Part shown: positions 3,004 to 32,000 of the stretch, piece after piece
Position numbering within the stretch: position 1 is the stretch's first letter
Layout of the letters: each line of letters begins with the position of its first letter
Assembly (NCBI GenBank): GCA_031288835.1
Contig: JAITQO010000006.1
Span: 3,024 to 35,023 of the forward strand
DNA from: Rickettsiales bacterium
GTDB lineage: Bacteria; Pseudomonadota; Alphaproteobacteria; Rs-D84
Direction: 5' to 3'
DNA: 32,000 bases
Notes under the pieces: model-generated
What the model was told of the DNA's origin: nothing
Seen by the model: only the letters and a program-made list of their open reading frames with translations
Database searches by the model: none
Program-made: the position numbers and the translations under genes

Positions 3004-3080
3004 TGGTCGGAGTGACTGGAATCGAACCAGCGACCTCTTGCACCCCATGCAAGCATTCTACCAGGCTGAACTACACTCCG
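3004..3080 (-). tRNA. trnP: tRNA-Pro, anticodon GGG, with encoded CCA
   Basis: The reverse complement is CGGAGTG TA GTTC AGCCTGGTA GAAT G CTTGC ATGGGGT GCAAG AGGTC GCTGG TTCGATT CCAGT CACTCCG A CCA. It has a perfect 7-bp acceptor stem, a 5-bp anticodon stem, loop A-T-GGG-G-T, and a T-loop TTCGATT. Confidence 0.93.
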
Positions 3081-11400: not shown

Positions 11401-11441
11401 ATTATTGTGGTAATGGGACGCTTTACGAAAAACTCTAACAT
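8424..11441 (-). CDS. RND efflux transporter, AcrB/HAE family inner-membrane permease (1005 aa)
   Basis: MLEFFVKRPITTIMFVLFWVVMGIVSYPKMNVERMPPMDLP is a classic AcrB N-terminus. The size suggests 12 TM helices and two large periplasmic loops. GAGGTG lies upstream of the ATG at 11441; the track's longer start is unlikely. Confidence 0.9.
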   Translation of the reverse strand: MLEFFVKRPITTIMFVLFWVVMGIVSYPKMNVERMPPMDLPMVTTTLLYPGAGPAEIESQVVKPVEDTISKVSGIKKITSQIYDNYAYIVTEFNLGEDALEKQQEVKGMVDSIAYNLPDDLEQPVVRKLNLMQQSVMELAISGADLRDAYEFVDTILSQKITAVHGVADVEVFGGRERAIRVFLDPQRMTAKGVSISAVLQAVTAHNLNVPAGKIESKWAANSIRFIGEFATVEQIENMSITTAEGLRFRLKDIAEVMDTAKDPSFGGRYAGEDVLIISIVKATDGNAVKISDGVRQRLDYYKKLVKQGLKNENADIKITYDSAESIRRETDSTLQGIIFGIILTVIVLLAFTKNWRSTVIAGVVIPVSLVSGFLFMNSSGFSINSMTLLAIASALGTLIANAIILIESSLNLLEEGHEPEHAAIEGAKKAAVAIFAGVGTNIVVFLPLAFMEGIAGLFMNQFGMTVVYLTVMSLLFSFTLTPMMIAKFMKKAEKKKVAATLKHEKMQLNWFKGIFNSEMKHPWRWLGLAVGVLFASSFLLRFVGNEFSASADTGEINITARAPMGATFDKTHKLAKRIEDKLAEFPEVAAASFKIGRRGIQNIGASLTLVPSSGRASDKEIAQRLVAAFADIPDADFLIKAGEIGGPSSAADMVISVLGEDDPIREGIADELMAKINGLEEVQSALLAEQTPTEEIQFIPNQRRMNEWGTSNAAVGVALRTAIYGDDTLKFREKGEEYPLIIEFSKLYKTVDSVSNILIPTQRGMVPVSELGKLEYRPASRNIYRVDKHRQTEINVNLGKSTIGPVRTKINAIIRDMNLPEDYRVIYGGMSEMQDETTGEMGKTFLLATILTFILLAAIMNSLTHPFTIATSIITAFSGVFAFLFLTGGTINIAAMLSVIMLVGLVVNDNILVLEPVISEIAKGKGVTDVLWEQYNDKHRVMLMTTIAIVAGMLPQMFSTDGTKVSMSAVLIGGMVGALVWTYLLTPALFVLMERLRRKVLKIR

Positions 11442-11559
11442 TTTTTCACCTCTGGGTGTATGATATGCGAAACGTAAAAAGCGATATGTAATATGACTTT
11501 TGTTTAACGGCGATAAACACACCATAATTCATATCATATGCCACATATCACTTTTCACG

Positions 11560-12054
11560 TCATTTGATTACAATCCTTTCTCCGTCTTTCAATCCGGCAA
11601 CAACCATTCGCTGGTTATCCTTTGCGACGACCTTCGCTCCGGCGGGCAGCACGGCGTCAACCGGCAGAAAGAATCCCGTGTATTCGCGCAGGGCCATCAC
11701 GTTCCCGGTTATATTTCCAGACACGCGGACGATGAACATTCCCGTGTCCAGGTCGATGTCTCTGGAAACAAACGTTATATTGGCGTCTTTATCCTTGATT
11801 TTCTGCCCTGTCGAAAACATGTGGACTCTGTCCGCGGACACCAGCGCGCGGCCGTTTTGCACGAATAGCGGCTCTTCCAAGAAATCCGTTGTTTTTTCCG
11901 CGACCACGTATTCGTGCGGACTGCCCTTTTCCTTGTGAATCCTGACGATATTGTTGACATGCCTGACGCCCTCCTCGCGCAGTTTTTGAATGCGGTATCC
12001 GACCAGGACGGACAATAAGAGAATCGATAAAAATATTGCGGCTTTCTTTTTCAT
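11560..12054 (-). CDS. Membrane-anchored mini periplasmic adaptor-like protein (164 aa)
   Basis: It has an N-terminal TM/signal anchor (MKKKAAIFLSILLLSVLVGY) and a C-terminus ...AKVVAKDNQRMVVAGLKDGERIVIK that resembles the terminal beta-strands of MFP/HlyD-type adaptors. It sits between the tolC-like and RND genes, with a 4-nt overlap with tolC. Confidence 0.5.
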   Translation of the reverse strand: MKKKAAIFLSILLLSVLVGYRIQKLREEGVRHVNNIVRIHKEKGSPHEYVVAEKTTDFLEEPLFVQNGRALVSADRVHMFSTGQKIKDKDANITFVSRDIDLDTGMFIVRVSGNITGNVMALREYTGFFLPVDAVLPAGAKVVAKDNQRMVVAGLKDGERIVIK

Positions 12055-13325
12055 CGCGTTTCATATTTCCTAATGCTTTCTTCCGTCGTCAAGATTTGCA
12101 GTTTCGCGTTGAACACGGCCATTTCCATCTGCGACATAGTGCGCTCCACATCCGACAGTTCCGTTGCCGAAGTTTGTCCGGCCAAGAACCTGCTTTTCGA
12201 CAAGTCATATGCTTTTTCGGCCAAATCCTTAGCCCTCAGAATATCTTTCAGCGACTGCCGCAGATGCGCATGCTTCTGAATCAGCTCGTTGTATTCGGCG
12301 GTTTTGATTTTCCGCGACTTGTCCAGGTCTTCGCGCGCGGAAATCGCGTTCATGGCGCTTGCCGTCGCCTGCGCCATCCTCGCCCCGGCGTCGAACAGGG
12401 GCATCGTGACTGATATTCCCACATTGGAAGATTTCAGAGCCGGATAAAAACTGCCGATGTTTTCCAACGAATCGGAAAGCCTGAGATAATTATACGAGCC
12501 GGTCGCCGCGATTGTCGGAAGATATCCGGCATAGTTCTGCCTTTTCTCCGCGTCGGCAATCTTGGCCTGCAATTCGTAAATATGCCATTCCAAAGGATTT
12601 ATTTCCTTTTTTGTCTTCGCGGCGAAACTGTTCGGAAAATCCGAGGTCAGGACCATGGGCTCGTATTCGCCGATTCCGGCGTAAACTTTCAGCATGCGGT
12701 GGGCGGAATCCCGATTGAATTTCGCGTTCTCCAAATCGATTTCGCGCGCGGCCACATCGGCTGCGATTTTGACAAGATTGCTGCGGTTCGCGCGGCCGGT
12801 GGCGGTCAGCTGCCTTTGCGCATTTTTCGTGTTTTTCAAGGATTTTTCGGCAACCCTGACGGATTCGTCGGTCACCTTCGCCGTCCAGTATAGCTGAACC
12901 GCCGCGGCGCGGGTTTCTATTTCCGCCAATTCCCTGGATTTCTTCGCAATTTCAACGCCCCCGCGCGCCATGTCCAGCGCATATCCGATTTTGCCAAACG
13001 AATATATCGGCATCGATGCGGAAACGCCGAGCGCACCGATATTGTCGATAGCCGCCGGAACGGAAGCCGAAGCGCTCGCCTGTATGGGCAGTCCGAAGGC
13101 GTTCGTCTGATACGAGGCCGTGGCGTCGAGCTTCGGCCAGCGGGCCGCGGCGGCGGCGGTCAGAATCGCGTCCATCCTTCTCACGTTCGCCTCGGCTTTC
13201 CTTATGTCCTGGGATTCCTCCAAAACCAATCCGATTGCCTCGTCCACGCCAAGGCTGCGCGCAAACCCGTCGCCGAATTGCGCAATGAATAGCCCTAGAA
13301 AAATAAAAAACATTATTTTTCTCAT
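12051..13325 (-). CDS. TolC-family outer-membrane efflux protein
   Basis: It has a signal peptide (MRKIMFFIFLGLFIAQF), is 424 aa long, and shows a duplicated helical/beta pattern (LVLEESQDIRKAEANV..., YLPTIAATGSYNY) typical of OEP/TolC. Confidence 0.85.
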   Translation of the reverse strand: MRKIMFFIFLGLFIAQFGDGFARSLGVDEAIGLVLEESQDIRKAEANVRRMDAILTAAAAARWPKLDATASYQTNAFGLPIQASASASVPAAIDNIGALGVSASMPIYSFGKIGYALDMARGGVEIAKKSRELAEIETRAAAVQLYWTAKVTDESVRVAEKSLKNTKNAQRQLTATGRANRSNLVKIAADVAAREIDLENAKFNRDSAHRMLKVYAGIGEYEPMVLTSDFPNSFAAKTKKEINPLEWHIYELQAKIADAEKRQNYAGYLPTIAATGSYNYLRLSDSLENIGSFYPALKSSNVGISVTMPLFDAGARMAQATASAMNAISAREDLDKSRKIKTAEYNELIQKHAHLRQSLKDILRAKDLAEKAYDLSKSRFLAGQTSATELSDVERTMSQMEMAVFNAKLQILTTEESIRKYETR

Positions 13326-16203: not shown

Positions 16204-17253
16204 TTACAATTTCAGCACTGCGATGGCGATTCCGGCGAATATGATTGACGCGATGAAAAAGCGCTCGACTATTTTCGTTTCCGACCACCCTTTCAGCTCA
16301 AGATGGTGATGCAGCGGCGCCATCAGGAACGGAGGTTTTCCCTTCGGCGCGACAAACCTGTAATACATCATCTGGGCGAACGACGATAACAGCACCAAAA
16401 CCATCACGGCGCTTGCCACGGCCATGACGATTTCGGATTTCATCAGCAGCGCCGACGTTCCGAGCAAACCGCCCAGCGCAAGCGCCCCTACGTCGCCCAT
16501 AAAAATGCTCGCCGGCTTGGCGTTGAACCACAAGAACCCCATGACCGCGCCCATAGTCGCGCCGAAAATCGGGAACAACGCCGCCGCCTCGGGCAGAAAT
16601 ATCAGGGACGGCATGAACCCGACGCGCGTTATTCCAACCAGCGCGACAACCAGAACGGACAGCGGGCACAGAATGACTTTCGCCAGCATGCCGTCCAGTC
16701 CGTCCGTTATGTTCGCGGCGTTGGCGGTTCCGACAATCACAAGATACGACCACACGAAATAAAGCATGCCCAGCGGCAGAATGATTCCGAACGGCAGAAC
16801 CACGGACAGCATGGGAACATACGCGGGCATCGTCATGTCTATCAGGAACGACAGGAACACCGCTATCACGCCCGCGGCCAAAAGACGCCCCATTTCGGAC
16901 AACCCGGCATAGGCGTTTCCACGAATAACCTTGTTGTAATCGTCCAAGAATCCCATGGCGCCGAACAGAACCAGCGCAATCAGGGGCGTCCACGCGACCA
17001 AGCTGGACCAATCCATAAACAAAAGCGACGCGGTTATAATCGCCGGAATGAACACCAGGCCGCCCATTGTCGGCGTGCCTTTTTTCTCGTCGACATGCTT
17101 TTGGATTCCGTCCGTTCTTACCGGCTGGCCGCGGCGCTGCCATTTTTTCAGCGCGGGAATAAGCAGGCGCCCGAATATCAGAACCAAGACGAACGCCGCC
17201 GCAAATGCCGCGGAAAACGCCACGCTGTTTTTTGATAGAAAATCAGTTATCAT
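16204..17253 (-). CDS. mraY: Phospho-N-acetylmuramoyl-pentapeptide transferase MraY
   Basis: KKGTPTMGG, NAANITDGLDGM and FMGDVGALALGG, plus the C-terminal APLHHHLELKGW, are MraY signatures. Confidence 0.92.
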   Translation of the reverse strand: MITDFLSKNSVAFSAAFAAAFVLVLIFGRLLIPALKKWQRRGQPVRTDGIQKHVDEKKGTPTMGGLVFIPAIITASLLFMDWSSLVAWTPLIALVLFGAMGFLDDYNKVIRGNAYAGLSEMGRLLAAGVIAVFLSFLIDMTMPAYVPMLSVVLPFGIILPLGMLYFVWSYLVIVGTANAANITDGLDGMLAKVILCPLSVLVVALVGITRVGFMPSLIFLPEAAALFPIFGATMGAVMGFLWFNAKPASIFMGDVGALALGGLLGTSALLMKSEIVMAVASAVMVLVLLSSFAQMMYYRFVAPKGKPPFLMAPLHHHLELKGWSETKIVERFFIASIIFAGIAIAVLKL

Positions 17254-17271
17254 TACATAGTCCTTTTTTTG

Positions 17272-19758
17272 TTATGAATCCGCTATCGGGCATACTTTTG
17301 GGGTTCCTGTAATCTTCCCCGTTTTTTGGCATTGACAATATGGGGATATAATACCTTTTGCCCCATCATTTCCATTGTTTGCGACATTATAGCATTCACC
17401 CGTTCCCGTTGAAGGGCAGGTACCATCAGCGGCGCATGTTCCAGTGCATGTATTGATAACCGACACCGAGTTACTCGGACAAGTGTTGCATACGTTACCG
17501 AAAACGTAATATCCCTCATAGCATTTGCAAGTTTCACTGACATATCCGTTTTCAGTGCCGTTGGCAGAAGGAGTATTGCTACTGCCGGCATATCCCGAGT
17601 TTGCCGGGCAGGCGGGCGCCGATGCGGGAATCTGCGCGCACGTTCCGACGGAAACATAATATCCGCTGTTGCACTTGCAGTTGGAATTGATATATTTGGA
17701 TTTTTCAGCGGGCACGACGCCATCGCTGTCCTGCAACGTGTCGCTCCAAGTAGAGTTCAGCGGGCACATCAATGTCTGATAGAACATATTTGACAGTCGG
17801 TCTATCAATGCATTCTGTTCGGTGACGCTATCGCGCGCGCCGGCGGTCGAAAACACCACATACGCGCAGGACAGCGCGACGCTGCGGCACGCGCCCATCA
17901 ATATAGGCCTTACTATGGACGGCGACAAACTGGTTCCGATGCCGTATGAGTTGGCGCTGGTAATCTGCCCGTTATAGCATGTGGAAACGTCTGTCAGGCA
18001 TGTTTTGGCGTATTCCGCAATAACGCCCGACTGCGCCGCGATGATTTGCGACATGGTGCGCTCCATATACGATTTTATGACGGTATTGTTGTCGACATAC
18101 TGCCCGTCGCTGTAGGTGTATCTGCGGCATTTGTCCAGCACCGGGCGGCAGAATCCGGACACGACGCGCCCGTTGTTGTCCATCACGCCGATTTTGGATT
18201 TCAGATAATCGACGATTTCCTTTCCATTTGTCTCGTTTGCCGCGGTGGCGACGTCGCAGCTGGCGGGCTCCGAAACGGATGAATCCAGCAGGCGGGCGAG
18301 ACACCTTGCATCGTAGGTGCTGGCGTATTCTTTCAGCGCGACAAGGTCGCCGCCCGGAATGACGTTGCCGTTTTCGTCAATCGCCCTTTTGCTCGGGTCG
18401 ACGCATTTGTAGTATTTGTCGCCGCAAACCATCTCGTCCCTCATGCATGAATCCAGCGCGCTGACGCAACCTTTGGCGTCATAGGCGTTCTGTTCGCCGA
18501 GGACGGTCAGGCGCGCCTTTTGCAGCATCTGCGTCGCCGAGCGGATATTCGTCTTGACGCCCGCGGTGGCCTTCTTCAGCCCCGCCTCGTATTGTATGCA
18601 CGCCTTGTCTATCTCGATGTCGTATTGCCCCGAGATAATCGACTGGTCCGCCTTTTTGGCCGCGCAGCGGGTAAGAATCGGCTTGCACTTTTTCTTGGCG
18701 GCGGCGTATAGCTCGGTTCCGCGCATATTGGCGAACGACTCGTTGTCGCCGAAGAGGGAGCTCAGGTCAAAATCGTCGCCCTCTCCGGAAAAATCCAAAC
18801 TAAAATCCAAAGAAGACGAACCGCCGGAACTGTAATCCGCAGTCGGCGATTTTATTAATTTCTCAATTTCTTCAAGCATGCTGCGCGACTGAGTCCTGTC
18901 CTCCGTCGTGCTCATGACCTTTTCCGCCTCGGTTTCTTTCATAATGCTGCGGATTTCGTCCGCGGCCAGGCCGACATAGCGGATTTGCTGGGCGACATTG
19001 TTCAGCTCGTTGTTCGCTTCGGTCAGCGAATCCTCGACCTTTTTATACTGCGACAGACGTCCGGAGCACGAGCACTGCTTCTGGTTCGCATCCAGAACGT
19101 TGCAGAACTGGTTCATGCAGTCGAAATACGACGCGGAGCAGTCCGCCAGCTCGCTGGCAGCGCTCGGCGCCTCGGCCGATTCCGCCGTCCCTTCGAACAT
19201 GGTGTCGACAGCCGCGCGGGAGCGGCGCGAAAGTTTTCTGGAAACCTCATCGTCAATATTCTGGCCGGCCGCAGCCTGGGCGCGCCCCGTGACGGCGCGT
19301 CCGTCTACTTCGACGAAAGACGGGCGCGAACCGCCGCCGCCGCGCGTTGAAGCGCCGCGGCCCGATTGGGATTGCGCCGCCGCGCTGCGCGTGGCGGTGG
19401 CGGCCGGGGCGCCGGAGCGGCCCCGAGAAACAGCGGCGCGAGAAATCGTCTTTGCGCCCGCCGCAGACGCGTCGCGGGATGTCGCCGCCTGGGCGGCGGC
19501 CGATTCAGCCTCCTCAGCCTCCGCGGATGCCCTTGATTGCTCCTTATTCGCCTGGACGGCCATGCGCGACGGGCGGCCGGCCGCAGACTGCTCGTTCTTG
19601 CCTGCCGCCGCCTTTGCGGCCGCGGCACGGGATATCTTTTGAACCTCCCCGGCCAGCGGCGACGGACCGACGGAAACAACGCGCGACGAACGCGCCGTAT
19701 CGTCCGCGAAAACCGCACTCGAAACGACAGCCAGAAAAACTGCGAGAACATTCTTCAA
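17272..19758 (-). CDS. Large secreted protein (828 aa): signal peptide, R/A/S/G-rich low-complexity region, Cys-rich core, C-terminal furin/EGF-like Cys repeats
   Basis: N-terminus MKNVLAVFLAVVSSAVFA/DD. Residues about 21-195 are low complexity. It shares the motif CSASYFDCMNQFC...CSCSGR with the 25353..27338 protein. The C-terminus has CKCNSGYYVSVGTC and CKCYEGYYVFGNVCNTC. The predicted start is TTG. Confidence 0.75.
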   Translation of the reverse strand: MKNVLAVFLAVVSSAVFADDTARSSRVVSVGPSPLAGEVQKISRAAAAKAAAGKNEQSAAGRPSRMAVQANKEQSRASAEAEEAESAAAQAATSRDASAAGAKTISRAAVSRGRSGAPAATATRSAAAQSQSGRGASTRGGGGSRPSFVEVDGRAVTGRAQAAAGQNIDDEVSRKLSRRSRAAVDTMFEGTAESAEAPSAASELADCSASYFDCMNQFCNVLDANQKQCSCSGRLSQYKKVEDSLTEANNELNNVAQQIRYVGLAADEIRSIMKETEAEKVMSTTEDRTQSRSMLEEIEKLIKSPTADYSSGGSSSLDFSLDFSGEGDDFDLSSLFGDNESFANMRGTELYAAAKKKCKPILTRCAAKKADQSIISGQYDIEIDKACIQYEAGLKKATAGVKTNIRSATQMLQKARLTVLGEQNAYDAKGCVSALDSCMRDEMVCGDKYYKCVDPSKRAIDENGNVIPGGDLVALKEYASTYDARCLARLLDSSVSEPASCDVATAANETNGKEIVDYLKSKIGVMDNNGRVVSGFCRPVLDKCRRYTYSDGQYVDNNTVIKSYMERTMSQIIAAQSGVIAEYAKTCLTDVSTCYNGQITSANSYGIGTSLSPSIVRPILMGACRSVALSCAYVVFSTAGARDSVTEQNALIDRLSNMFYQTLMCPLNSTWSDTLQDSDGVVPAEKSKYINSNCKCNSGYYVSVGTCAQIPASAPACPANSGYAGSSNTPSANGTENGYVSETCKCYEGYYVFGNVCNTCPSNSVSVINTCTGTCAADGTCPSTGTGECYNVANNGNDGAKGIISPYCQCQKTGKITGTPKVCPIADS

Positions 19759-20557: not shown

Positions 20558-23329
20558 TTACTTTTCCTCCAAATCCTCTTCCTCGTGCTCTATCGCCGTC
20601 GCGCTGATGACCTTTTCCCCGTCCGCCGTGCGGAACAGCGTCACGCCCGCGGTTGCGCGGCCGGCGACCCGGATTTGCCCGGCCGGCGTCCTGATGATTT
20701 TTCCGCCGTCGGTCACCAGCATCAAATCCATGCCGTCGGCAATCGGGAAACTGGCCGCGACGGCCGTGTTCTTGCCGCCCAGTTTTATTCCCGCGAAACC
20801 GTTTCCGCCGCGGTGCGTCGTGCGGTATTCGTAGGACGACGTCCGTTTTCCGAACCCGTTCTCGGAAACCGTCAGAATGAATTGCTCGCATTTTTTCATT
20901 TCCGAATATTTTTCCGGGGGCAGAACCAAAGACGTTGTTTCTTCGTCGTCGGACGCCTCTTCCTCAATTCCTGTCGCCGCCCGGCGCTCGGCGCGAGACT
21001 GCCTTATATAGGCCGAGCGCGTATCGGCGTCCTCGAAGACGTGAGCCAGAACAGCCATGTCTATCACATGGTCGTCGGACGCCAGCCTTATCGCGCGGAT
21101 TCCGTCGGACGCGCGACCGGCGAACACGCGGACTTCATCGACGGCGAAGCGGATTACTTTGCCGCGGTATGTCGACAGCAGTATGTCCTGGCTTTCGCGA
21201 ACCGGACGGACGGCAATCAGTTCGTCCCCTTCGTCCAGCTTCATCGCGATTTTTCCGTTCGCGCGAATCGATTCGAAGTCGCTGATTTTGTTCCTGCGAA
21301 CGTTTCCGTTCTTCGTCGCGAACATCAGGTATTCGGAGCCGTTCTCGGGCGCGGGCAGAATCGTGGTGATTGTCTCGCCTTCCGAAAGAGGCAGCAGGTT
21401 GACCAGCGGACGCCCCTTCGCCGCGGCGCCGCCCTCGGGCAGCTTGTATGTCTTCATGCGATAGCACATCCCGGACGACGAGAAGAACATCAGCGGCGTG
21501 TGCGTGTTCGCGATGAAAATGTCCGCGACGAAATCCTCGTCCTTGGTGGTCATGGCGTTGCGCCCCTTGCCGCCGCGCCTTTGCGAGCGATAGGTGTCGA
21601 GCGCGACGCGCTTTATGTATCCGGTTCCGGTGATTGTGATTACCATGTCCTCCCGGGCAATCAAATCCTCCATGTCCATATCCATCTCGGCGTCCGTGAT
21701 TTCCGTCTTGCGGGCGCCGCCGAAGCTTTCGGCAATCGCCGCGGACTCCGCGCGGATGATTTCCGTGATTTTCTCCGCGCTGCCGAGAATATCGAGCAGA
21801 CGCTTTATTTCCGCGCCCAGTTCCGCCAAATCGCCGTGGATTTTCTCGCGCTCCAAGCCTGTCAGTTTGTGCAGCTGCAACTCCAGAATCGCCTTTGCCT
21901 GGCTGTCCGACATATAAAACATCCCGTTATTCTCATCATACCGGCAGTCCGGATCGTCAATCAGTCTGATATAGTTTTCTATATCTCTGGCCATCCATCC
22001 GCGGTCGAGCAGGCGCTCTTTCGCAACCTCGGGCGACTCGGAGCCTTTAATCAGTTCGATTATCTCGTCCAGATTGCCGACGGCGGCCGTCAGCCCCAGC
22101 AATGTGTGCGCCTTGTTCCGCGCCTTGTTCAGCTCGTATATCGTGCGCCTGCGCACGACTTCGCGCCGGAAACGAACAAACGATTCCAATACCCCCTTGA
22201 CCGAGAATTGAACCGGACGCCCGTTTTCCAGCGCCATCATGTTGATTGGGAACGAGCTCTGCAACTCGGTGTATTGGAACAGCCGATTCAGAACGACGTC
22301 GCCGATTGCGTCGCGCTTCAATTCGATTACCACGCGCACGCCCTCGCGCGAAGATTCGTCGCGCAGTTCGCCGATTCCCTCCACGCGCTTTTCTTTCGCC
22401 AATTCCGCGATTTTGATAATCAGCTGGGCCTTGTTCACGGCGAACGGAATCTCGTCCACGATAATCGCGGTGTGGTCATTGAAATCCTCGAAATGCGTTT
22501 TCGAGCGGACAATCACGCTGCCGCGGCCGGTCAGATGCGCCTTGAGCGCCCCAGAGCGGCCGAGCATGATTCCGCCCGTCGGAAAATCGGGGCCGGGAAT
22601 AATCCTGAACAAATCCTCGTCCGAAATACGCGGATTATCCAGTATCGCCAGCACGCCGCTCATAACCTCGCCAAGATTGTATGTCGGAATATTCGTCGCC
22701 ATTCCGACCGCAATTCCCGACCCGCCGTTGACCAAAAGATTCGGAAATTTCGCGGGCAGAACGCGCGGCTCCTGCAAGCTGCTGTCGAAATTAGGCATCC
22801 AGTCGACGGTATCCTTGTCCAAATCGTCCATCAAAAGGTTCGCGAGTTTGGTCAGCCGCGCCTCGGTATACCGCATCGCCGCCGCGCCGTCCCCGTCGCG
22901 CGAGCCGAAGTTGCCCTGGCCGAATACCAGAACCTCGCCCATCGAAAACCCCTGCGCCATACGCACCATCGCCTCGTAAATCGAGGAATCGCCGTGCGGA
23001 TGGTATTTACCCATGACATCTCCGACGATGCGGGCGGACTTGACGGTGGGCTTCGATGCGGGCGCGACGTCGGACATGACGTAAAGAATCCGGCGGTGAA
23101 CGGGCTTGCACCCGTCGCGCACATCCGGGAGTGCCCGGTCTGTAATCACCGACATGGCATAGTCCAAAAACGACACCTGCATTTCATGTTCCAATGGGGA
23201 CGTCGGAACCGGCGGGCTGCCGGGCGGCACGCCGCCGCTATTTTGCGGCGCGGACGGCGCCGAGGGCGCGCCGCCGCCAGCTTCCCGCCCCCCGTTCCCT
23301 TTATTCATGATGTCAAGCAAATCGGCCAT
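20558..23329 (-). CDS. gyrA: DNA gyrase subunit A
   Basis: Motifs [43 protein letters not shown] and the active-site [10 protein letters not shown] are present, followed by a C-terminal beta-pinwheel region. It also has an N-terminal P/G/S-rich extension of about 30 aa. Confidence 0.95.
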
Positions 23330-23678
23330 ATGTCTTCCTTTATGTTACGGACAACTATACAAAACCGCGGAAAACCTTGCAAGAAAATAATTTCGCGCAT
23401 GTGTGGCTGAAAAAACGGCCTTTTCTGCGATTTTATTTTTCTAGAAAATTACATTAGAAGTCAAAAAGAAACGCATGCCGGCCGATTATATGCGCTAATT
23501 ACTATAAGTGCAAACTTTATCATAACAATCTTTATCATCGCATGCGCTTTCTGGCGCGGGTAAAGCAAGGTTGTTATCGACATCATACCACTTGTTTCTT
23601 GTCATTTTGCCTCTCACCGCTTATTTTATTTGTATTTTCCATTCGCATCTTTTACCATATATGTTAAAAAGGAAAAAG

Positions 23679-25352: not shown

Positions 25353-27338
25353 TCATGGAGTCGCCGGGGCCGACCAGCCGCGGATTTCGCCCACATTCAG
25401 CGTATTCAGCATGCAGCTCTCCGCCGGCGCCTGGCTTGCCGCGACGATTTCCGACAACAGAACGGTATTCCGCGACGAATCGGAAACCGAGGAGTTTATA
25501 CCGGTCGCCTCCTGGTTGCAAACCATCTGCTCGTAGCATGTCGGAACGTTCGACATCTGGTTGCAGAAGTTCTTTATGCGCGTGGTGTTTCCCGTCCATC
25601 CGCTCTCGCGGTTCTTATCCTGGCGGCACTGCATTATTTCGTCTATGCATTTCAGATAATTCTCCTTCGCAGTGGCCAGCGACTGCAATCTGTTGTTTTC
25701 CTTTTCCGTCGTGAACTCGAGCCTCTTTTTCTGAAGCAGCTGCGTGGCGGCGATTTTCTGATACGCCATGTTCTGCGCCTGCTTCTTCAGCTCCTCCCCG
25801 TAAACGTCGCAATCCGCGTTCGCGTCCAGAACATACTTTTGCAGGATGGACAGGCGCGCGTCCGCAATCGGCTGGCGCAATGTCGAATACGGGTCGCCCG
25901 ACGTGCTGGTGTATCCGAAGCACGCCGCGGTTCCGGTGCTGGCGGTCGTTCCCTTCGGCGTCACGAATTCAATGTCGTTTCCGTTCACGGTTATGTCGCT
26001 GTTCATGTTATACGGCCCGCTGCCGCCGCCCTGGGACGTCGGGCGGTTTCCGCACATCTCGTAAATGCCGTTGAAGCACGAATCCAGGACGCGCCCGCAC
26101 ACGTTGTTGTGCGCGTATTGGAACAGCTCGTATCCCCATGTCTGCGCCAGTTTGTCCACGCTGGTCTCCGTTTCAAACACGGAATTGCTGCCGTTGACAA
26201 TCAGGTCGACATTGTTGAACGAGCTGAACAGGTTGTCTTCATTGGAATAGTTGAACGTGTTCACTTCGTTTAAAGTGTCCGCGTATGTCTGCAGAGACGT
26301 CAGAATGTCGGAATCGGCGCCGTTCAGAATGTTCATCCATGCGTCGCCGGTTCCGTTGCCATACAACGTGTTGCAGGTCGAGTTCATCGACGACTCGCAC
26401 GACGCGGTGTCCAGCATCAGATGCGCGTCGCACCACGCCTTCATCGACGCGTTCGCCCCCAGGCGCTTTTTTTCATCCCGGAACGACACGCAGTTCAGGG
26501 ACTTTTCCGCATCGGTCAGCTCGAACGCCGAATGGATTGATTCGCCTTTCGATGCAATCAGAAGCGACAGTTCGCCCGAAACCTTCAGCAAATCCTCCTT
26601 GGCCGTCTGCAGGGTCGCCTCGACCGTATTGAACGTCTTCACGCGGCCGGCGCACGCGCAGCGCCTTTGTCCCGGATTCCGCGCGGTGCAAATCTCGTCC
26701 ATGCACGTGTAGTATGAAGACAGGCAGTTGGAATAAGAATCCGCCGACAGCATTCCGGTCGTCGGGTCAATCAGGTTGCTGTATGTGGCCTGCGCGAGCT
26801 TTGTCGTCAGAGTGCTGCCTATCGTTCCGGTTGACGCGCGTATTGCCGAGCCGGTCAATCCGACCCGCGCCTGCTGAATGCCGCCGCTGCGCGCGATGAC
26901 GCTGCGGGCCTGTCCCGTGGCGCGGATGGCCGCCGCCGGCGCGCGCGAGCGGACCGTTCTTTGCGCCGCCGCGGCCGTCGTCCTTGTCGCCCCTCCGCCG
27001 CGCACGGCCACTCCGCGCGACTGCACCGACGGCAGCGCGACGGCCGCCGTTGCTTCCCTGCCATTATTCGCATTTTGCTGAACCGAACGCGAAGACCTCG
27101 TATTGCCGGACGCGCCGCGGACGCCGCGGACGGCGCCGCCGCCCCTCTGAACACTCGCGGAAAGGATGCCGCGCGGACTTTGCGCCGACGCGGCGGCAGG
27201 CAGAACCTCCGCCTGCACAGGGTCGGCGAACGCGGCGGACACCGAGAAAACCACAAGAAAAATGAACAGAAATCCGGCGGTCAAAAACAGGCTGCCCACA
27301 AGACCCTGGATTCTGGCATATAATTGGCGAGACTTCAT
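25353..27338 (-). CDS. Large secreted cysteine-rich protein (661 aa), paralog of 17272..19758
   Basis: Signal peptide ...FLFIFLVVFSVSAAFA/DP, an R/A/S/G-rich region (residues about 39-180), then CLSSYYTCMDEICTARNPGQRRCACAGR, which aligns with the other paralog at nearly the same residue number. AGGGAG SD lies 7 nt before the ATG. Confidence 0.75.
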   Translation of the reverse strand: MKSRQLYARIQGLVGSLFLTAGFLFIFLVVFSVSAAFADPVQAEVLPAAASAQSPRGILSASVQRGGGAVRGVRGASGNTRSSRSVQQNANNGREATAAVALPSVQSRGVAVRGGGATRTTAAAAQRTVRSRAPAAAIRATGQARSVIARSGGIQQARVGLTGSAIRASTGTIGSTLTTKLAQATYSNLIDPTTGMLSADSYSNCLSSYYTCMDEICTARNPGQRRCACAGRVKTFNTVEATLQTAKEDLLKVSGELSLLIASKGESIHSAFELTDAEKSLNCVSFRDEKKRLGANASMKAWCDAHLMLDTASCESSMNSTCNTLYGNGTGDAWMNILNGADSDILTSLQTYADTLNEVNTFNYSNEDNLFSSFNNVDLIVNGSNSVFETETSVDKLAQTWGYELFQYAHNNVCGRVLDSCFNGIYEMCGNRPTSQGGGSGPYNMNSDITVNGNDIEFVTPKGTTASTGTAACFGYTSTSGDPYSTLRQPIADARLSILQKYVLDANADCDVYGEELKKQAQNMAYQKIAATQLLQKKRLEFTTEKENNRLQSLATAKENYLKCIDEIMQCRQDKNRESGWTGNTTRIKNFCNQMSNVPTCYEQMVCNQEATGINSSVSDSSRNTVLLSEIVAASQAPAESCMLNTLNVGEIRGWSAPATP

Positions 27339-27399: not shown

Positions 27400-28581
27400 T
27401 TACCAACTCATGCTTTTATATGTCTTGGCGGACACCGTGTCGCCGAACATATCGCGCTTTTTCTCGGACAATGTTTGGAATGTATCGCTGGAAATCACGC
27501 GCAAAACGAACGAATCGTCGTTTCTCTGCGACAACACCGGAATAATCCGTCTGTCTATAATCCCGGAATCCTTCAGTACCTGCTCTATGATTGCCAGCCT
27601 TCTCGCCGCCAGTTTCCGCCCGTCATACGTCCGCGTGCCGCGCTCGGAGATGGAAACCTGAACCGCGCGTTTCGGATTCGCCGCGACTATGCCGGCGTAT
27701 TCGGCGAGCAGGTTATAATTGTCGCGCGACAGCGCCGAATCGTCGTCGTTGAACGCGATTTTGATTTCAAGCGGGCGCACGCCGCCGCCCTCGGACAAAT
27801 CCCGGGACGAATCGAACCCGACTGTGGATTCGCTGAAAGACGCTTCGTCGAATCCATCGTCAACCTGATATGTCGACAAATGCTTGTTTTCCGACGTGAA
27901 TGTCTTCTTGAATGCCTTTTTCAATTGGGACGGCGACAATTTGGTCAAAGGAACTTCGCCTTTATATGCAAACTCATCATCCAAAGAGGCCATGTTTTCG
28001 GCATTCGGGGCGGGCGTTTTCTTGACCGGAACAAAGCGCGGTGCCGATTTGATTACGGACGGCGCCGATTTGGCGGCCGGAACAACGTTTTTTTTGCGCG
28101 GCGAGTCTTCGCCGGAATCATTCCCCCTGACTACGACATCAACGTTTTTCTTCGCGCGGCCGACGCTGTTTTGAACCGGCTGAACGCGAACTTTCGCGGG
28201 GGCCACGACCCTTGACGCCGCGAAAAACCTTTTCGGCTCGTCATCCAGAGTTTCCTCCGGCAGGAAAAAATCCGACGAAGACGCCACAGAATACTCGGAT
28301 TCGTCCGGCATGCGCAGCGGGGCCTCCCCGCTGTTCGACCACAAGTCCACGGCCGGCTTCCTCGGAATCAAAAGTTCGCGACTCGCGTCTCGCGTCTCGC
28401 GACTCGCGGTTCTCGGCGGTTCGGGCGTCGTATTTGCAAACTTGGGAACATATGCCGGCTCCACCCCGTATAAATCCAGCGCGGACACGGTTTTCGCCGG
28501 GTTTACTGGCGGCAGCTCGCCGATTGCGAACGCGTTTGCCGCAAACAAAGCGGCCGGCAATGTCAAATGGATTCTGGACAT
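27400..28581 (-). CDS. Secreted/periplasmic protein with a degenerate C-terminal OmpA/MotB-like domain (393 aa)
   Basis: Start at ATG 28581, preceded by AAGGAAGGAAAGGA. Signal peptide MSRIHLTLPAALFAANAFA. A long low-complexity middle region is followed by the C-terminus IKIAFNDDDSALSRDNYNLLAEYAGIVAANPKRAVQVSISERGTRTYDGRKLAARRLAIIEQVLKDSGI, which follows the OmpA-C pattern (F..dsa.L......L....I.i.G.tD.....N..LS..RA..V...L...Gi). Confidence 0.6.
   Translation of the reverse strand: MSRIHLTLPAALFAANAFAIGELPPVNPAKTVSALDLYGVEPAYVPKFANTTPEPPRTASRETRDASRELLIPRKPAVDLWSNSGEAPLRMPDESEYSVASSSDFFLPEETLDDEPKRFFAASRVVAPAKVRVQPVQNSVGRAKKNVDVVVRGNDSGEDSPRKKNVVPAAKSAPSVIKSAPRFVPVKKTPAPNAENMASLDDEFAYKGEVPLTKLSPSQLKKAFKKTFTSENKHLSTYQVDDGFDEASFSESTVGFDSSRDLSEGGGVRPLEIKIAFNDDDSALSRDNYNLLAEYAGIVAANPKRAVQVSISERGTRTYDGRKLAARRLAIIEQVLKDSGIIDRRIIPVLSQRNDDSFVLRVISSDTFQTLSEKKRDMFGDTVSAKTYKSMSW
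28376..28409. repeat. Tandem heptanucleotide array TCGCGAC TCGCGTC TCGCGTC TCGCGAC TCGCG
   Basis: Read directly from the sequence. It lies inside the OmpA-like CDS and encodes TASRETRDASRE. Confidence 0.8.
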
Positions 28582-28655
28582 TCCTTTCCTTCCTTGGATG
28601 AAGTTTAGAAAAAATTGCCATTGCCACGCAAGCATTTTTTTTGTAATCTGTGCGC

Positions 28656-30101
28656 ATGTGGGAGGGAGATATAAAATCCTCGGGCAATTTCATGTTGCAG
28701 GCATTGCTGGCGCTGGCGCTGGTCATCGCCTTTCTGCCAATGTTCGTGAAGAAAGTGGCGGACAAAAACACGAACCGCGAAAACATCGCGGTTGTCCAGC
28801 AAATCACGTCCGCGTTCGACGCCGCGCGCGCGTTCATATATGAGGAGTTCGACAATTTTCCCAACGGCGTGGAGACATTTTCCGGCGATGAATTCGTCCG
28901 GACGCTCGAGCCATACGGACTGCCGCTCGGCTTTGTTCCCCGCACGCCCCTCGGGCAAAGCATTTCACTGGTGGTCAGCAAGAACGGGAAAGACATTCTT
29001 GCGGCGCTTGTCGTCGACGGCGGGAAACTCGGCCGGTTCCGCCGCGCGGAAATCATGGCGCGCATAGGATTCTGGGGTATGCTGGCCGACGGGGACGGCC
29101 CGCTCAAAGGGGCGACGGGCGGGTGGAGCATGTCCGACGTTCCGAACGGCGTAACCTTCAATCCGGACGACATTCTGGTTCTTGTTCCCGAAGAAGAGGA
29201 GTTTTCTGAGCTGATTCTGCGCAATGCAAAGAATCCGGACAAAAACATTTTCCACACAAACATCAAAATGGACGGAAACAACATAACGTCCGTCGCCGCG
29301 CTTTCGGCGAACAACGGGAAAATCAAAAACGTCGCGGCCAGCGATTTTCTGCTGTCGGGAATCGAAACCGACAGGAAAAATAAGAACGACATCGGCCTTG
29401 TCCGCGCAAGAAAGGTTTGGTTTTCGGCGGCGAACGGAAATCCTTTGACCATCGTCCGCTCGGATTTGCGGACGGGGCTTTTCTCGGCGACGTCCGTCGC
29501 GAACTACGGAGACGCGCCGAATTTGACGGCAAGAAACGTCGAGGTGCGCGATTTCAGCATGGCGGCGGGAAAGACGGGCTTTGCCGGGCCATCGCAATGG
29601 AACATAAACACGACCGCAAGCTTCACGAATATAACCCTGAATGTCGAAAGGCTGAGCCTGTCGTCGTTTCTGGACACCAGCCGCGGCCAGGACATATTCC
29701 TGAACGAAGACGGCAGCAGTTTGGAATACATGGCGGGCAGCGGCATCCGCGCGAAGACGCTCAGAACCGACAACATAATCTTCCGCGACCAGATTTCAAG
29801 CGAGCTTCTGAGCGGCGGCACCGGCGCGGCGCTTTTGGAAATCCGGCCGGCCGGAACCACTTCCCTGCCCGACGCGTCGCTTGCCGGAATAAACAACGAC
29901 CAACTGAAGATTCCGATATCGGCCGAAGACAACTCCGGAAAACTGGAAACATGCAGGGCAATAATCTCGCGGCTCGGCGGAAAATACAACGCGGCGTCGC
30001 TGGCGGACAACATCGTGTGCCGCTTCGTCCTATACAACAGGATCGAGCGGCGCATAGAAATAAAAAAATGCCTTCTCGACGGAGGAACGCAATGCATCTA
30101 G
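28656..30101 (+). CDS. Large pilin-like protein 1 (481 aa): prepilin-type N-terminus and PilV-like blocks
   Basis: The N-terminus MWEGDIKSSG/NFMLQALLALALVIAFLPMF is a short polar leader ending in Gly followed by about 20 hydrophobic residues. It shares blocks with the next two genes. The start is uncertain (GTG 28650, ATG 28656 or ATG 28692) and has no SD. Confidence 0.6.
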   Translation: MWEGDIKSSGNFMLQALLALALVIAFLPMFVKKVADKNTNRENIAVVQQITSAFDAARAFIYEEFDNFPNGVETFSGDEFVRTLEPYGLPLGFVPRTPLGQSISLVVSKNGKDILAALVVDGGKLGRFRRAEIMARIGFWGMLADGDGPLKGATGGWSMSDVPNGVTFNPDDILVLVPEEEEFSELILRNAKNPDKNIFHTNIKMDGNNITSVAALSANNGKIKNVAASDFLLSGIETDRKNKNDIGLVRARKVWFSAANGNPLTIVRSDLRTGLFSATSVANYGDAPNLTARNVEVRDFSMAAGKTGFAGPSQWNINTTASFTNITLNVERLSLSSFLDTSRGQDIFLNEDGSSLEYMAGSGIRAKTLRTDNIIFRDQISSELLSGGTGAALLEIRPAGTTSLPDASLAGINNDQLKIPISAEDNSGKLETCRAIISRLGGKYNAASLADNIVCRFVLYNRIERRIEIKKCLLDGGTQCI

Positions 30102-31216
30102 AACGCGGAGCGTCTTTGCTGGAAATGATGTTCGCAATCGCGATTGTCGCGGTCGCGATGCCGTTCGCATACCGCCAGGTGTCGGATATCGGGCGAAACA
30201 TGAAAATAATGGCCGAGGCGCGGAAAATCATATCCGACGCGGACCCGATAAAAAACCATATTCGCCTGCATGACGCCGAGTTCGCGCCGGACGAGCTGAC
30301 GCTGGTTGAAACGGACGACGAAAACAAAAGATTCTACGTCTCCAAGACAGGCGGCGGAACGACCGCGTTTCTTGTCGTGAAAAACGGATGGGACGGCCTC
30401 TCCGCGCACAAAATCGCGCGCGCAATCGGAACCGACGCCGCGGTCTCCGAAGAGGACGGCGCGGCATACGGCGTTTCCGGCGAATGGGCGATTTCGTTCG
30501 ACGGGCTGGAACCCGGCGACATAGTGTATAGAATCGACGCCGCGAAATCCGGCGGCGACACGGCGAAATACCTGCACAGGACGATTTTGTCCGAAGGAGA
30601 ATTGTCGACGATGAAGAGGGATATGTCGATGGGCAACTTCTCGATAAGAAACGCGGGCGGGATTGCGGCGAAGAAACTGAACGCGTCCGAGCTGAACGCG
30701 TCGCTGGTGAAGACGCCGGCAATCGCCGCGAATTCGCTTTACTTTTCCGACGGGCTGAACCTGAATCCGGACAAGGCGAAGTTTCCGGGCGTCCGCGTGA
30801 ACGGCGACGCGGTATGGTTCAGAAATCTTTTCGCGGACGATTTCAACAGCGGACACGGGACGCTAACCGCCGACCGCGCCTCGATTTCCGACAAACTGAC
30901 GGTATCGAACAAGTTCGAAGTCAAGTCGTCATACTCCCGAACAATCAGCGGCTTTGCGGGCGTCGCGGCCGGAATCGCCAGAACCGCGTTCCTGGACGCC
31001 GACAGCCTGACGTTCCTGCCTGGATTCGGACTGACCGTTTCAAGCGAGCTGTTGTATTCGGCGACGCCGCCAGTCAAACTCGGGTCGTGGACGTTCCCCA
31101 ACTCGTCCGGCGCCGGGCCGAAGTTCAATTCATTGAGGCTGCGGAACCTGGGCGGCGGCGAGATTGCGCCGAACGTTTCGGATTTTTCCAAAATATTGAA
31201 GGAGGGTTGGCGATGA
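30092..31216 (+). CDS. Large pilin-like protein 2 (374 aa)
   Basis: GGAGGA lies 5 nt before the ATG at 30092. There is a 10-nt overlap with the upstream stop. N-terminus MHLERG/ASLLEMMFAIAIVAVAMPF has Glu at +5. The Arg-rich 225-codon extension in the track ORF (29417..) overlaps gene 1 and is rejected. Confidence 0.7.
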   Translation: MHLERGASLLEMMFAIAIVAVAMPFAYRQVSDIGRNMKIMAEARKIISDADPIKNHIRLHDAEFAPDELTLVETDDENKRFYVSKTGGGTTAFLVVKNGWDGLSAHKIARAIGTDAAVSEEDGAAYGVSGEWAISFDGLEPGDIVYRIDAAKSGGDTAKYLHRTILSEGELSTMKRDMSMGNFSIRNAGGIAAKKLNASELNASLVKTPAIAANSLYFSDGLNLNPDKAKFPGVRVNGDAVWFRNLFADDFNSGHGTLTADRASISDKLTVSNKFEVKSSYSRTISGFAGVAAGIARTAFLDADSLTFLPGFGLTVSSELLYSATPPVKLGSWTFPNSSGAGPKFNSLRLRNLGGGEIAPNVSDFSKILKEGWR

Positions 31217-32000
31217 AGGGCGAGCGCGGCGCCGGTTTGCTGGAATTACTGCTGGCCATGGCGATATTCATGGAGATTCTTCCGTTCGTATACAACTTCG
31301 TGAAAAAACACAGGGAGCAGGCGGAGAATGTCGCGATTGTAAAAAAAATAAGGACTGTGCAAAACGCCCTCGAGCAATACATTTCGGACAACAGGCAGAA
31401 ACTGCTCGCGCCCGTGTCCAAAAACGTCGCGCGCGTCCGTCTGTCCGAGCTGAAGGGAGTTTCCCCTGACGAACTCGGCGCCGCGAAAATAGAACTGCGC
31501 GTGGTGAAGTCAAAGGATTCGGCCGGGCATTCGTTCGTGCAGGGGATTGTGATTTTCGATTCGCCGTCGCTGTCGCCGCTCCGGACCCGGCAAATCGCGG
31601 CGGCCGGCGGACAGGCGGCGGGCTTCGCGGACGGGCTGATGCTTTACGGCTCGTTCGGAACATGGCAGGCGCCGATGTCGTCAATCGGCGCGGCAGTCGG
31701 CGGCCATTCGATTCTGGCGGAAACGCGGACGTTCAGAAGCGGGGGCGACTATCTGCAGCGCCTGCCCAGCGCGGACCCGCTGGACGCGACTATGCAGTCG
31801 GACATGGACCTCGGCGGGCACGACATAGAGGACGCGAAGACAATAACATCGGTCGGCGCCAGATTCCTCGACACAGTGGAAACCGACGGGATAGAGGCCT
31901 CGAAAATGACCGTTCTGAACCGCATGGACTGGACTGCGCCGCTCGAAACGTTCGGCGACGCGACGGTGAACGGCGCGATTTCGTCGGACGGGCGCTCGAT
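31213..32000 (+). CDS. Large pilin-like protein 3 (partial, at least 262 codons; runs off the right edge)
   Basis: Not in the ORF track (no stop in the window). I checked the frame and it is open from 31213 to 32000. GGAGGG lies 6 nt before the ATG, which forms an ATGA overlap with the upstream stop. N-terminus MKGERG/AGLLELLLAMAIFMEILPF. Confidence 0.7.
   Translation, partial: MKGERGAGLLELLLAMAIFMEILPFVYNFVKKHREQAENVAIVKKIRTVQNALEQYISDNRQKLLAPVSKNVARVRLSELKGVSPDELGAAKIELRVVKSKDSAGHSFVQGIVIFDSPSLSPLRTRQIAAAGGQAAGFADGLMLYGSFGTWQAPMSSIGAAVGGHSILAETRTFRSGGDYLQRLPSADPLDATMQSDMDLGGHDIEDAKTITSVGARFLDTVETDGIEASKMTVLNRMDWTAPLETFGDATVNGAISSDGRS

Follow-up and report, generated by a model that had tools for sequence, protein, structure and literature searches.

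We analyzed a 32,000-nucleotide (nt) stretch of a genome labelled Rickettsiales bacterium (contig JAITQO010000006.1, positions 3,024–35,023; hereafter the window), at the right-hand end of which lie three consecutive plus-strand genes, here named P1, P2, and P3, for large proteins with pilin-like N-termini (Table 1). A first-pass annotation, made from the sequence alone, had described these genes as translationally coupled and their products as PilV-like. The full length of P3 was taken from a Logan contig (L001; P3 at 11122–12405) that carries an identical P2 gene (exact look-up) and extends 7 kb past the window; P3 ends approximately 0.5 kb beyond the window. The coupled layout was verified: the P1 stop codon TAG (30099–30101) lies inside P2, giving a 10-nt overlap, P2 and P3 share an ATGA (31213–31216), and both Shine-Dalgarno sites lie where they had been placed. 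The coordinates and peptide strings given for the three proteins were all correct, and the nine sequence blocks were located exactly. The G+C content of the triad cluster (58%) is near that of the window (54%).

Public gene calls place the start of P1 at 28692 (469 amino acids, aa), which deletes the leader and the Gly cleavage site described below, and many P1 orthologs are likewise called from an internal Met (469-aa versions). Because residues preceding Met13 are conserved in orthologs, we consider the start at 28656 real and uphold it, as first annotated, over the database start. Database entries of P1 orthologs that begin at the internal Met lose the signal, so that the nature of these proteins is hidden. 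The gene upstream of P1, for an OmpA-like protein, is divergent; its start, taken from the gene call (L001 8490), corresponds to window position 28581, and a simple scan of the intergenic region (28582–28655) found no consensus promoter.

Table 1. Features of the P1–P2–P3 locus (window coordinates unless stated otherwise)
Feature	Position	Strand	Remarks
P1	28656–30101	+	481 aa; four invariant C-terminal Cys; closest of the three to PilV
P2	30092–31216	+	374 aa; locus tag LBT45_00910
P3 (part in window)	31213–32000	+	first 262 of 427 aa; gene end on L001 equivalent to window 32496
Shine-Dalgarno GGAGGA for P2	30081–30086	+	within 3' end of P1
Shine-Dalgarno GGAGGG for P3	31201–31206	+	within 3' end of P2
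Class III signal and start of alpha-1, P1	28677–28745	+	exact block match; ortholog alignment; single hydrophobic segment
Class III signal and start of alpha-1, P2	30101–30166	+	exact block match; ortholog alignment; single hydrophobic segment
Class III signal and start of alpha-1, P3	31222–31287	+	exact block match; ortholog alignment; single hydrophobic segment
Block i of P1 / P2 / P3	28995–29135 / 30362–30499 / 31534–31674	+	exact matches
Block ii of P1, ILRNAKNPDKNIFHTNIKMDGNNITSV	29214–29294	+	aligns with a 29-residue PilV stretch; end of PilV-shared region
Block ii of P2	30569–30652	+	exact match; HMM and hhalign alignments
Block ii of P3	31750–31833	+	exact match; HMM and hhalign alignments
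Divergent intergenic region, 74 nt	28582–28655		between OmpA-like gene and P1; presumed promoter
P4 and P5	32632–33661 (L001 12541–13570)		just beyond window, after P3

Prepilin-type N-termini

Each of the three proteins contains one hydrophobic segment only, located at the N-terminus, where a short basic leader ending in Gly precedes approximately 20 hydrophobic residues. The leaders and the residues that follow the putative cleavage site (↓) are MWEGDIKSSG↓NFMLQ in P1, with Gln at +5, and MHLERG↓ASLLE and MKGERG↓AGLLE in P2 and P3, respectively, both with Glu at +5; Pro occupies position +18 in all three. Ortholog alignments gave the family consensus sequences G↓NF(L/M)LQ for P1, RG↓AS(L/M)LE for P2, and G↓xxLLE for P3, with an invariant Pro(+18). 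Gln(+5) of P1 is invariant within its clade, whereas remote P1 orthologs from two other lineages (L012 and L014) carry Glu; in these lineages, Gly(−1), Glu(+5), and Pro(+18) are kept in all three proteins. In addition, the motif G-x4-[E/Q/S]-x12-P was found in 81 of the 109 full-length representative relatives, with E at +5 in 53, Q in 26, and S in 2.

The class III (prepilin) signal that had been proposed, with Glu(+5) in two of the three proteins, is thus conserved in each ortholog family. That Gly(−1), Glu(+5), and Pro(+18) stay conserved over deep divergence speaks for a prepilin signal, because an ordinary membrane anchor would have no need of these positions. A six-frame motif scan of the window and L001 (approximately 39 kb) found no class III N-terminus besides those of P1–P3.

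Homology to PilV, paralogy, and conserved gene order

P1 matched the Pfam family Shufflon_N (PF04917) with 31.4 bits (gathering score 27.5), and 7 of 24 P1 orthologs matched it at E ≤ 0.01; P2 and P3 gave no direct Shufflon_N match in Pfam. When P1 was searched by tblastn against 72,556 plasmids, 1,521 records matched, mostly from Escherichia and Salmonella, and the 15 records listed all fell on annotated pilV, with alignments covering P1 residues 28–270 at approximately 25% identity. As an authentic reference, we used the IncI-type PilV of a Serratia plasmid, which is encoded inside a real pil gene cluster (type II secretion system (T2SS)-F-family protein, major pilin, lytic transglycosylase, prepilin peptidase, and pilV). 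Hidden Markov models (HMMs) built from the ortholog alignments of P1 (A3), P2 (A1), and P3 (A4) matched this PilV with 45.9, 38.1, and 39.6 bits, respectively, over approximately 240 residues that start at the RG↓ site and finish at the counterpart of block ii. The reference PilV has Pro at +18 and is without Glu at +5.

Because Shufflon_N, the plasmid tblastn search, and the three family HMMs agree, the resemblance that the first-pass annotation had seen to PilV shufflon adhesins, in their constant N-terminal region, is real, and by these comparisons P1–P3 are homologs of that region. The three proteins are also related to each other. Pairwise BLASTP among them gave weak but significant E-values (5e-6, 9e-5, and 1e-3), and profile–profile alignment with hhalign matched the P1 and P2 families with a probability of 98.9% (E = 3.8e-17, 345 columns), the P3 and P2 families with 99.3% (E = 3.3e-20, 232 columns), and the P3 and P1 families with 99.1% (E = 1.3e-18, 216 columns). 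The common region begins at the cleavage site, takes in both shared blocks that had been noticed beyond the signal (i and ii), and ends slightly past block ii; farther on, only P1 and P2 align, weakly. As judged from these alignments, P1, P2, and P3 are paralogs over their first 230–345 residues. The C-terminal halves had been described as non-homologous, which holds for P3 beyond block ii but not strictly for P1 and P2, whose 345 aligned columns are of low confidence C-terminally.

Could P1–P3 instead be three unrelated membrane-anchored proteins whose N-termini resemble pilins by chance? Such an explanation would suit the sub-threshold scores of the N_methyl and TIGR02532 models and the nonsignificant fold searches of the PDB (both given below). 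However, it is contradicted by the profile–profile probabilities, by the above-threshold Shufflon_N match together with three independent HMM matches to authentic PilV, and by the recurrence of the N-terminal motif among the relatives, and we regard it as effectively refuted.

P2 has 27 detectable relatives, nearly all in metagenome-assembled genomes (MAGs) labelled 'Rickettsiales', and P1 has at least 262 relatives at 90% clustering, which occur in MAGs labelled Rickettsiales, Alphaproteobacteria, or Proteobacteria and in unnamed metagenome contigs, on contigs of up to 532 kb. A profile search of 1.84 billion representatives returned 375 proteins at E ≤ 0.001 (PilV-type proteins included) and 50 at E ≤ 1e-30. 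The three closest genome matches are also labelled 'MAG: Rickettsiales bacterium', with isolate codes that we take to be those of a termite-gut MAG set. The order P1–P2–P3, with one copy of each gene, was found in nine further contexts (L002–L007, L009, L012, and L014), including lineages at only approximately 20–30% identity, and at every readable triad locus the best match of each gene was its own family profile. The genes overlap in the window, and the called coordinates give overlaps for L003, L007, and L014 as well. The flanks of the triads are housekeeping genes that differ among lineages (dnaX, nusA/infB, lptD/lptF, recO/parC, and lpxA/lpxB). The three genes are kept together and in the same order under purifying selection, and their C-terminal modules are conserved and distinct from one another.

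When the operon was searched for inverted repeats, all pairs obtained were imperfect and none recurred in the manner of shufflon sfx repeats, and no recombinase was found among the Pfam-scanned open reading frames (ORFs) of the window or the called genes of L001. Furthermore, the C-terminal parts are conserved inside each ortholog group (A1, A3, and A4). A shufflon at the triad was rejected on these three grounds. Because the C-termini are conserved and shufflon-type repeats are absent, P1–P3 are not variable tips, and the suggestion of variable adhesive tips in the first-pass annotation did not hold; conservation of the C-termini speaks for a ligand or partner that does not vary, not for a variable adhesin. 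PHROGs gave no match for P1–P3, for the two genes that follow them (P4 and P5), or for the longer relatives described below, and a phage origin of P1–P5 was likewise rejected.

P1–P3 therefore belong to the PilV N-terminal domain family, yet the triad is not a PilV shufflon system. PilV is the single, shufflon-varied adhesin of enterobacterial plasmid mating pili. Like PilV, the tip adhesin of the IncI1/R64 type IVb thin pilus, the three proteins combine, in their homologous first 240 residues or so, a leader ending in Gly, Pro(+18), and a putative pilin-like domain, and the motif L-Y/H-R ... N-x-M ... D-M-G-x-x-x-I/L (block ii) closes the constant region in both; P1 and the reference PilV also share the absence of Glu(+5). 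The triad differs from PilV in that it is chromosomal and located among housekeeping genes of uncultured Alphaproteobacteria, comprises not one gene but three paralogs whose order is fixed, is without shufflon segments, sfx-type repeats, or an Rci recombinase, has no pilS, pilU, pilQ, pilR, or pilN beside it (in the window, L001, and the other triad loci), and carries conserved C-terminal parts unrelated to those of PilV. Among the titles found in the literature on PilV-like or Shufflon_N proteins, all concerned enterobacterial plasmids and islands, except for a domain-wide survey of programmed inversion. Here, the PilV N-terminal domain occurs as a fixed chromosomal paralog trio in a large, almost wholly uncultured group of gut and termite-gut Alphaproteobacteria.

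A candidate filament tip and competing explanations

On balance, we consider it probable, if only just, that P1–P3 form a heterotrimeric minor-pilin complex that acts as the tip or initiator of a type IV filament encoded elsewhere. The N-terminal hydrophobic helix would insert each protein in the inner membrane, and a prepilin peptidase encoded elsewhere would cut it after the conserved Gly. One copy each of P1, P2, and P3 would then assemble via the N-terminal helices and beta-rich C-terminal parts, and the heterotrimer would cap and prime the filament and carry its binding surface. P1, which in this clade is without Glu(+5), as is the reference PilV, would be the outermost subunit. More speculatively, P5 might serve as a secreted partner in the manner of CofJ or TcpF.

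The analogy is with CofB, in which a pilin domain and beta-rich domains form a homotrimeric initiator at the pilus tip (PMC6048534), and with TcpB, which behaves like CofB (PMC5207764, PMC9565799). These proteins are likewise large (400–500 aa), with a pilin-type N-terminus and a beta-rich remainder (the latter predicted for P1–P3), and a gene trio would by analogy yield the same three-subunit layer. Conversely, CofB and TcpB are products of single genes inside full pilus operons and form homotrimers, they have no detectable sequence similarity to P1–P3, and neither was among the Foldseek matches of the triad models. The three-gene stoichiometry is thus only suggestive of a trimeric tip. If the heterotrimer is real, it would be a natural counterpart, encoded by three genes, of the homotrimeric CofB/TcpB tip complex and a useful system for studying filament priming by tip complexes and subunit specialization.

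AlphaFold2 was run on P1 and P2 with family alignments, with an overall mean predicted local distance difference test (pLDDT) score of only 54–58, but with confident models of the N-terminal domains of both. In the P1 model, a helix (residues 12–64) precedes strands and short helices that extend to residue 180 (blockwise mean pLDDT approximately 67–93 over residues 11–180), and a confident C-terminal helical module (405–480) contains the four invariant Cys; in the P2 model, a helix (9–59) is followed by beta strands to residue 150. The middle parts of both models consist of long strand pairs of low confidence. The best Foldseek match was that of P2 to a chain of the XcpGHIJK pseudopilus (probability 0.91, E = 0.24), and a sequence search of the PDB found no solved structure for relatives of PilV or of the P1–P3 families. 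Support for a pilin fold of the N-terminal domains of P1 and P2 thus comes from prediction and not from a database match: the long N-terminal helix and the beta strands expected for such a fold were obtained, but no significant PDB fold match was.

Several results weigh against the tip-complex interpretation, and the absence of visible assembly machinery is its main weakness. Neither the window and the 7 kb that follow it nor the surroundings of the nine other triads (approximately 10 kb, or as far as the contig reaches) contained a major pilin, ATPase, platform protein, secretin, or prepilin peptidase. The models of Pfam N_methyl and TIGR02532 did not reach their cut-offs (P2, 18.0 vs. 21.2 bits and 16.1 vs. 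16.3 bits, respectively; P3, 14.2 bits; P1, no match), probably because the residue at +1 is S, N, A, or G instead of F or M. Foldseek found no significant match in the PDB for either model, and a profile search of PDB sequences found no similarity to CofB or TcpB. In addition, the beta-rich, trimerizing architecture of P1–P3 is a conjecture, as the models of their middle and C-terminal parts are of low confidence.

The observation that no pilus machinery lies nearby had already been made for the left part of the window. It holds for the 7 kb beyond as well, and the large ORFs in the window itself represent housekeeping genes (truA, fmt, def, rmuC, acrB together with a gene for an outer-membrane factor, murG, ftsW, mraY, gyrA, and plsC). 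No prepilin peptidase was found in the approximately 39 kb of this genome covered by the window and L001, and tblastn with PilR, PilS, PilT, and PilU of the real pil operon gave no match in approximately 237 kb that included the window and the triad loci. These results could indicate that P1–P3 are repurposed pilins that build no filament and instead form an inner-membrane-anchored periplasmic or envelope-spanning complex, whether cleaved or not, which we regard as rather unlikely. Such a complex would have no dedicated ATPase or major pilin, and in this clade a ZitP-like neighbor might place it at the pole. Machinery is absent beside all ten triad contexts, whose flanks are all housekeeping genes; the C-terminal modules are strongly conserved, not variable; and a ZitP-like gene follows the triad in L001, L004, L006, L007, and L009 and lies nearby in L014. 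However, Gly(−1), Glu(+5), and Pro(+18) have persisted through deep divergence, which is the signature of processing and filament helix packing, and because chromosomal pilus genes are often scattered, the absence of machinery within 10 kb is weak evidence.

A more specific conjecture, which we consider unlikely, is that triad bacteria have no type IV filament machinery and that P1–P3 form a PilV-derived, autonomous heterotrimeric spike with a three-helix inner-membrane anchor and beta-rich stalks, positioned by the ZitP-like protein and perhaps carrying P5. If true, pilins would here build an envelope structure independent of any pilus motor; small triad genomes without pilus machinery would likewise point to pilins working without a pilus.

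The three genes also recall GspI, GspJ, and GspK, three different pilin-like proteins in a row, one of them without Glu(+5). As an analog of these, the triad could be the tip of a T2SS-like pseudopilus, with P1 on top, pushing substrates out instead of mediating adhesion. GspK is without Glu(+5), as is P1, in which Gln(+5) is invariant as opposed to Glu in P2 and P3; P2 has its highest Foldseek probability to a pseudopilus chain; and GspG and GspI gave weak N-terminal matches (E = 0.05–0.15). These matches are restricted to the hydrophobic helix and are far below the cut-offs (GspG, 13.7 vs. 88.9 bits; GspI, 13.2 vs. 44.4 bits), however. Moreover, P1–P3 exceed GspI and GspJ three- to fourfold in size, no Gsp machinery lies near the triad, remote P1 orthologs have Glu(+5), and the protein to which homology was demonstrated, PilV, is a pilus adhesin. 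We therefore consider a pseudopilus tip quite unlikely.

It seems highly improbable that P1–P3 are accessory adhesins of a type IV secretion system (T4SS) or conjugation-like apparatus, in which the role of IncI PilV would have been adapted to a chromosomal T4SS. PilV does serve IncI conjugation, and in L011, which holds a real pil operon, the pil genes adjoin DotD/TraH-family and traJ transfer genes. Furthermore, the gene of a distant 990-aa relative (L016) lies 10 kb away from that of a VirB11-type ATPase, and in L019 a homolog of this ATPase is accompanied by CagX/VirB9 and TrbI/VirB10 genes. Conversely, no such ATPase linkage was found around an approximately 1,040-aa relative in L017 or around any triad, and PilV depends on the type IVb pilus machine, not on a T4SS. 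The L016 ATPase, which belongs to the T2SSE family, was also examined as a candidate pilus motor and rejected; it appears to be VirB11, given the genes beside its L019 homolog, and the linkage is absent in L017.

TadE, TadF, and TadG of Tad/Cpa pili offer a further comparison, being alphaproteobacterial, with a G↓xxxxE-type site and a large member (TadG); moreover, biogenesis of the Cpa pilus in Caulobacter needs ZitP (PMC5182063), whose architecture P4 is predicted to share. They differ from the triad in that P1–P3 gave no match to Pfam TadE (PF07811) or Tad_N (PF13400) at E ≤ 1 and have Pro(+18), as in the reference PilV.

Neighboring genes, longer relatives, and other features

P4 and P5 lie directly 3' of the triad in L001, L004, L006, L007, and L009, and an RluD-type pseudouridine synthase gene follows P5 in L001, L006, L007, and L009. 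P4 (approximately 160 aa) combines a CxxC...CxxC zinc ribbon, a membrane segment (residues 37–64), and a DUF3426/FxLYD-type domain. P4 orthologs passed the cut-off of FxLYD (25 vs. 23) and remained below those of Zn_ribbon_4 (22–25 vs. 30.3), DUF3426 (18.6 vs. 27.7), and MJ0042_CXXC (19.7 vs. 20.9); with most domain scores sub-threshold, the predicted architecture is ZitP-like. ZitP consists of an MJ0042-type zinc ribbon, one membrane segment, and a periplasmic DUF3426 domain, through which it is required for Cpa pilus biogenesis in Caulobacter (PMC5182063, PMC5182065). P5 (approximately 155–180 aa; 181 aa in L001) has a signal peptide, is Cys-rich, and belongs to no family. A sigma-70-like promoter match was located immediately 5' of P4 (L001 12501–12528). 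In L014, a P4 homolog and rluD lie on the opposite strand, 3 kb from the triad, and because of this arrangement the P4–rluD pairing may be an older linkage; the link of P4 to the triad is only suggestive.

On the other side of the triad, the divergent gene (27400–28581, −) encodes a 393- or 411-aa secreted protein with a weakly OmpA/Pal-like C-terminus, and the next gene (25353–27338, −) encodes a protein of 661 aa that is rich in Cys, has an N-terminal region rich in Ala, Arg, and Gly, and is paralogous to the product of an 828-aa ORF (17272–19758, −; approximately 25% identity over 300 aa); none of the three matched a Pfam family. The OmpA-like and 661-aa genes were rejected as parts of a conserved unit, as they lie beside the triad only in its closest relatives (L005 and L006). 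Approximately 4 kb downstream of the cluster, L001 carries a RE_R_Pab1-family restriction endonuclease gene and a 379-aa gene, probably its methyltransferase partner (16277–18158, −); the codon usage of both is A+T-rich compared with the surroundings.

Gut MAGs labelled Alphaproteobacteria or Proteobacteria contain a second subfamily of longer relatives (approximately 830–1,130 aa), with a PilV-like N-terminal region of 230 residues, the site G↓S(M/I)M(V/I)E, and Pro(+18). Two of their genes lie at L016 9291–12973 and L017 9316–13123, each preceded by a gene of approximately 225 aa, and that of L017 adjoins fliL and fliM. In the L016 protein, GNVTA-type tandem repeats come after the N-terminal region; they suggest a beta solenoid, and a weak FapA match was found there; weak DUF2345 matches occurred on the second-subfamily proteins P0226 and P0311. 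The ATPase gene of L016 occupies positions 1–350, and within L019 1–10357 its homolog comes after CagX/VirB9 and TrbI/VirB10 genes in a 1.79-Mb assembly with many split genes. A lone gene in L015 (1286–6142) encodes a 1,618-aa protein with a PilV-like N-terminus (G↓SVIVE, Pro at +18) and is flanked by housekeeping genes (UDG, OmpA, a TPR protein, and a RuvB_N/MgsA_C-family AAA ATPase).

Elsewhere in the window, the 941-aa ORF at 20585–23410 (+) was rejected as a gene and taken as a shadow ORF, as it belongs to no family and is antisense to gyrA (20558–23329, −). In a G+C-rich segment at 1400–2000, several frames of either strand are open over long distances; the ORFs there, among them one of 182 aa rich in Cys and Ala (1428–1976, +) and one rich in Ala and Gly (1482–1892, −), have no family matches. 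The only RNA gene found in the window encodes tRNA-Pro (GGG) at 3004–3080 (−).

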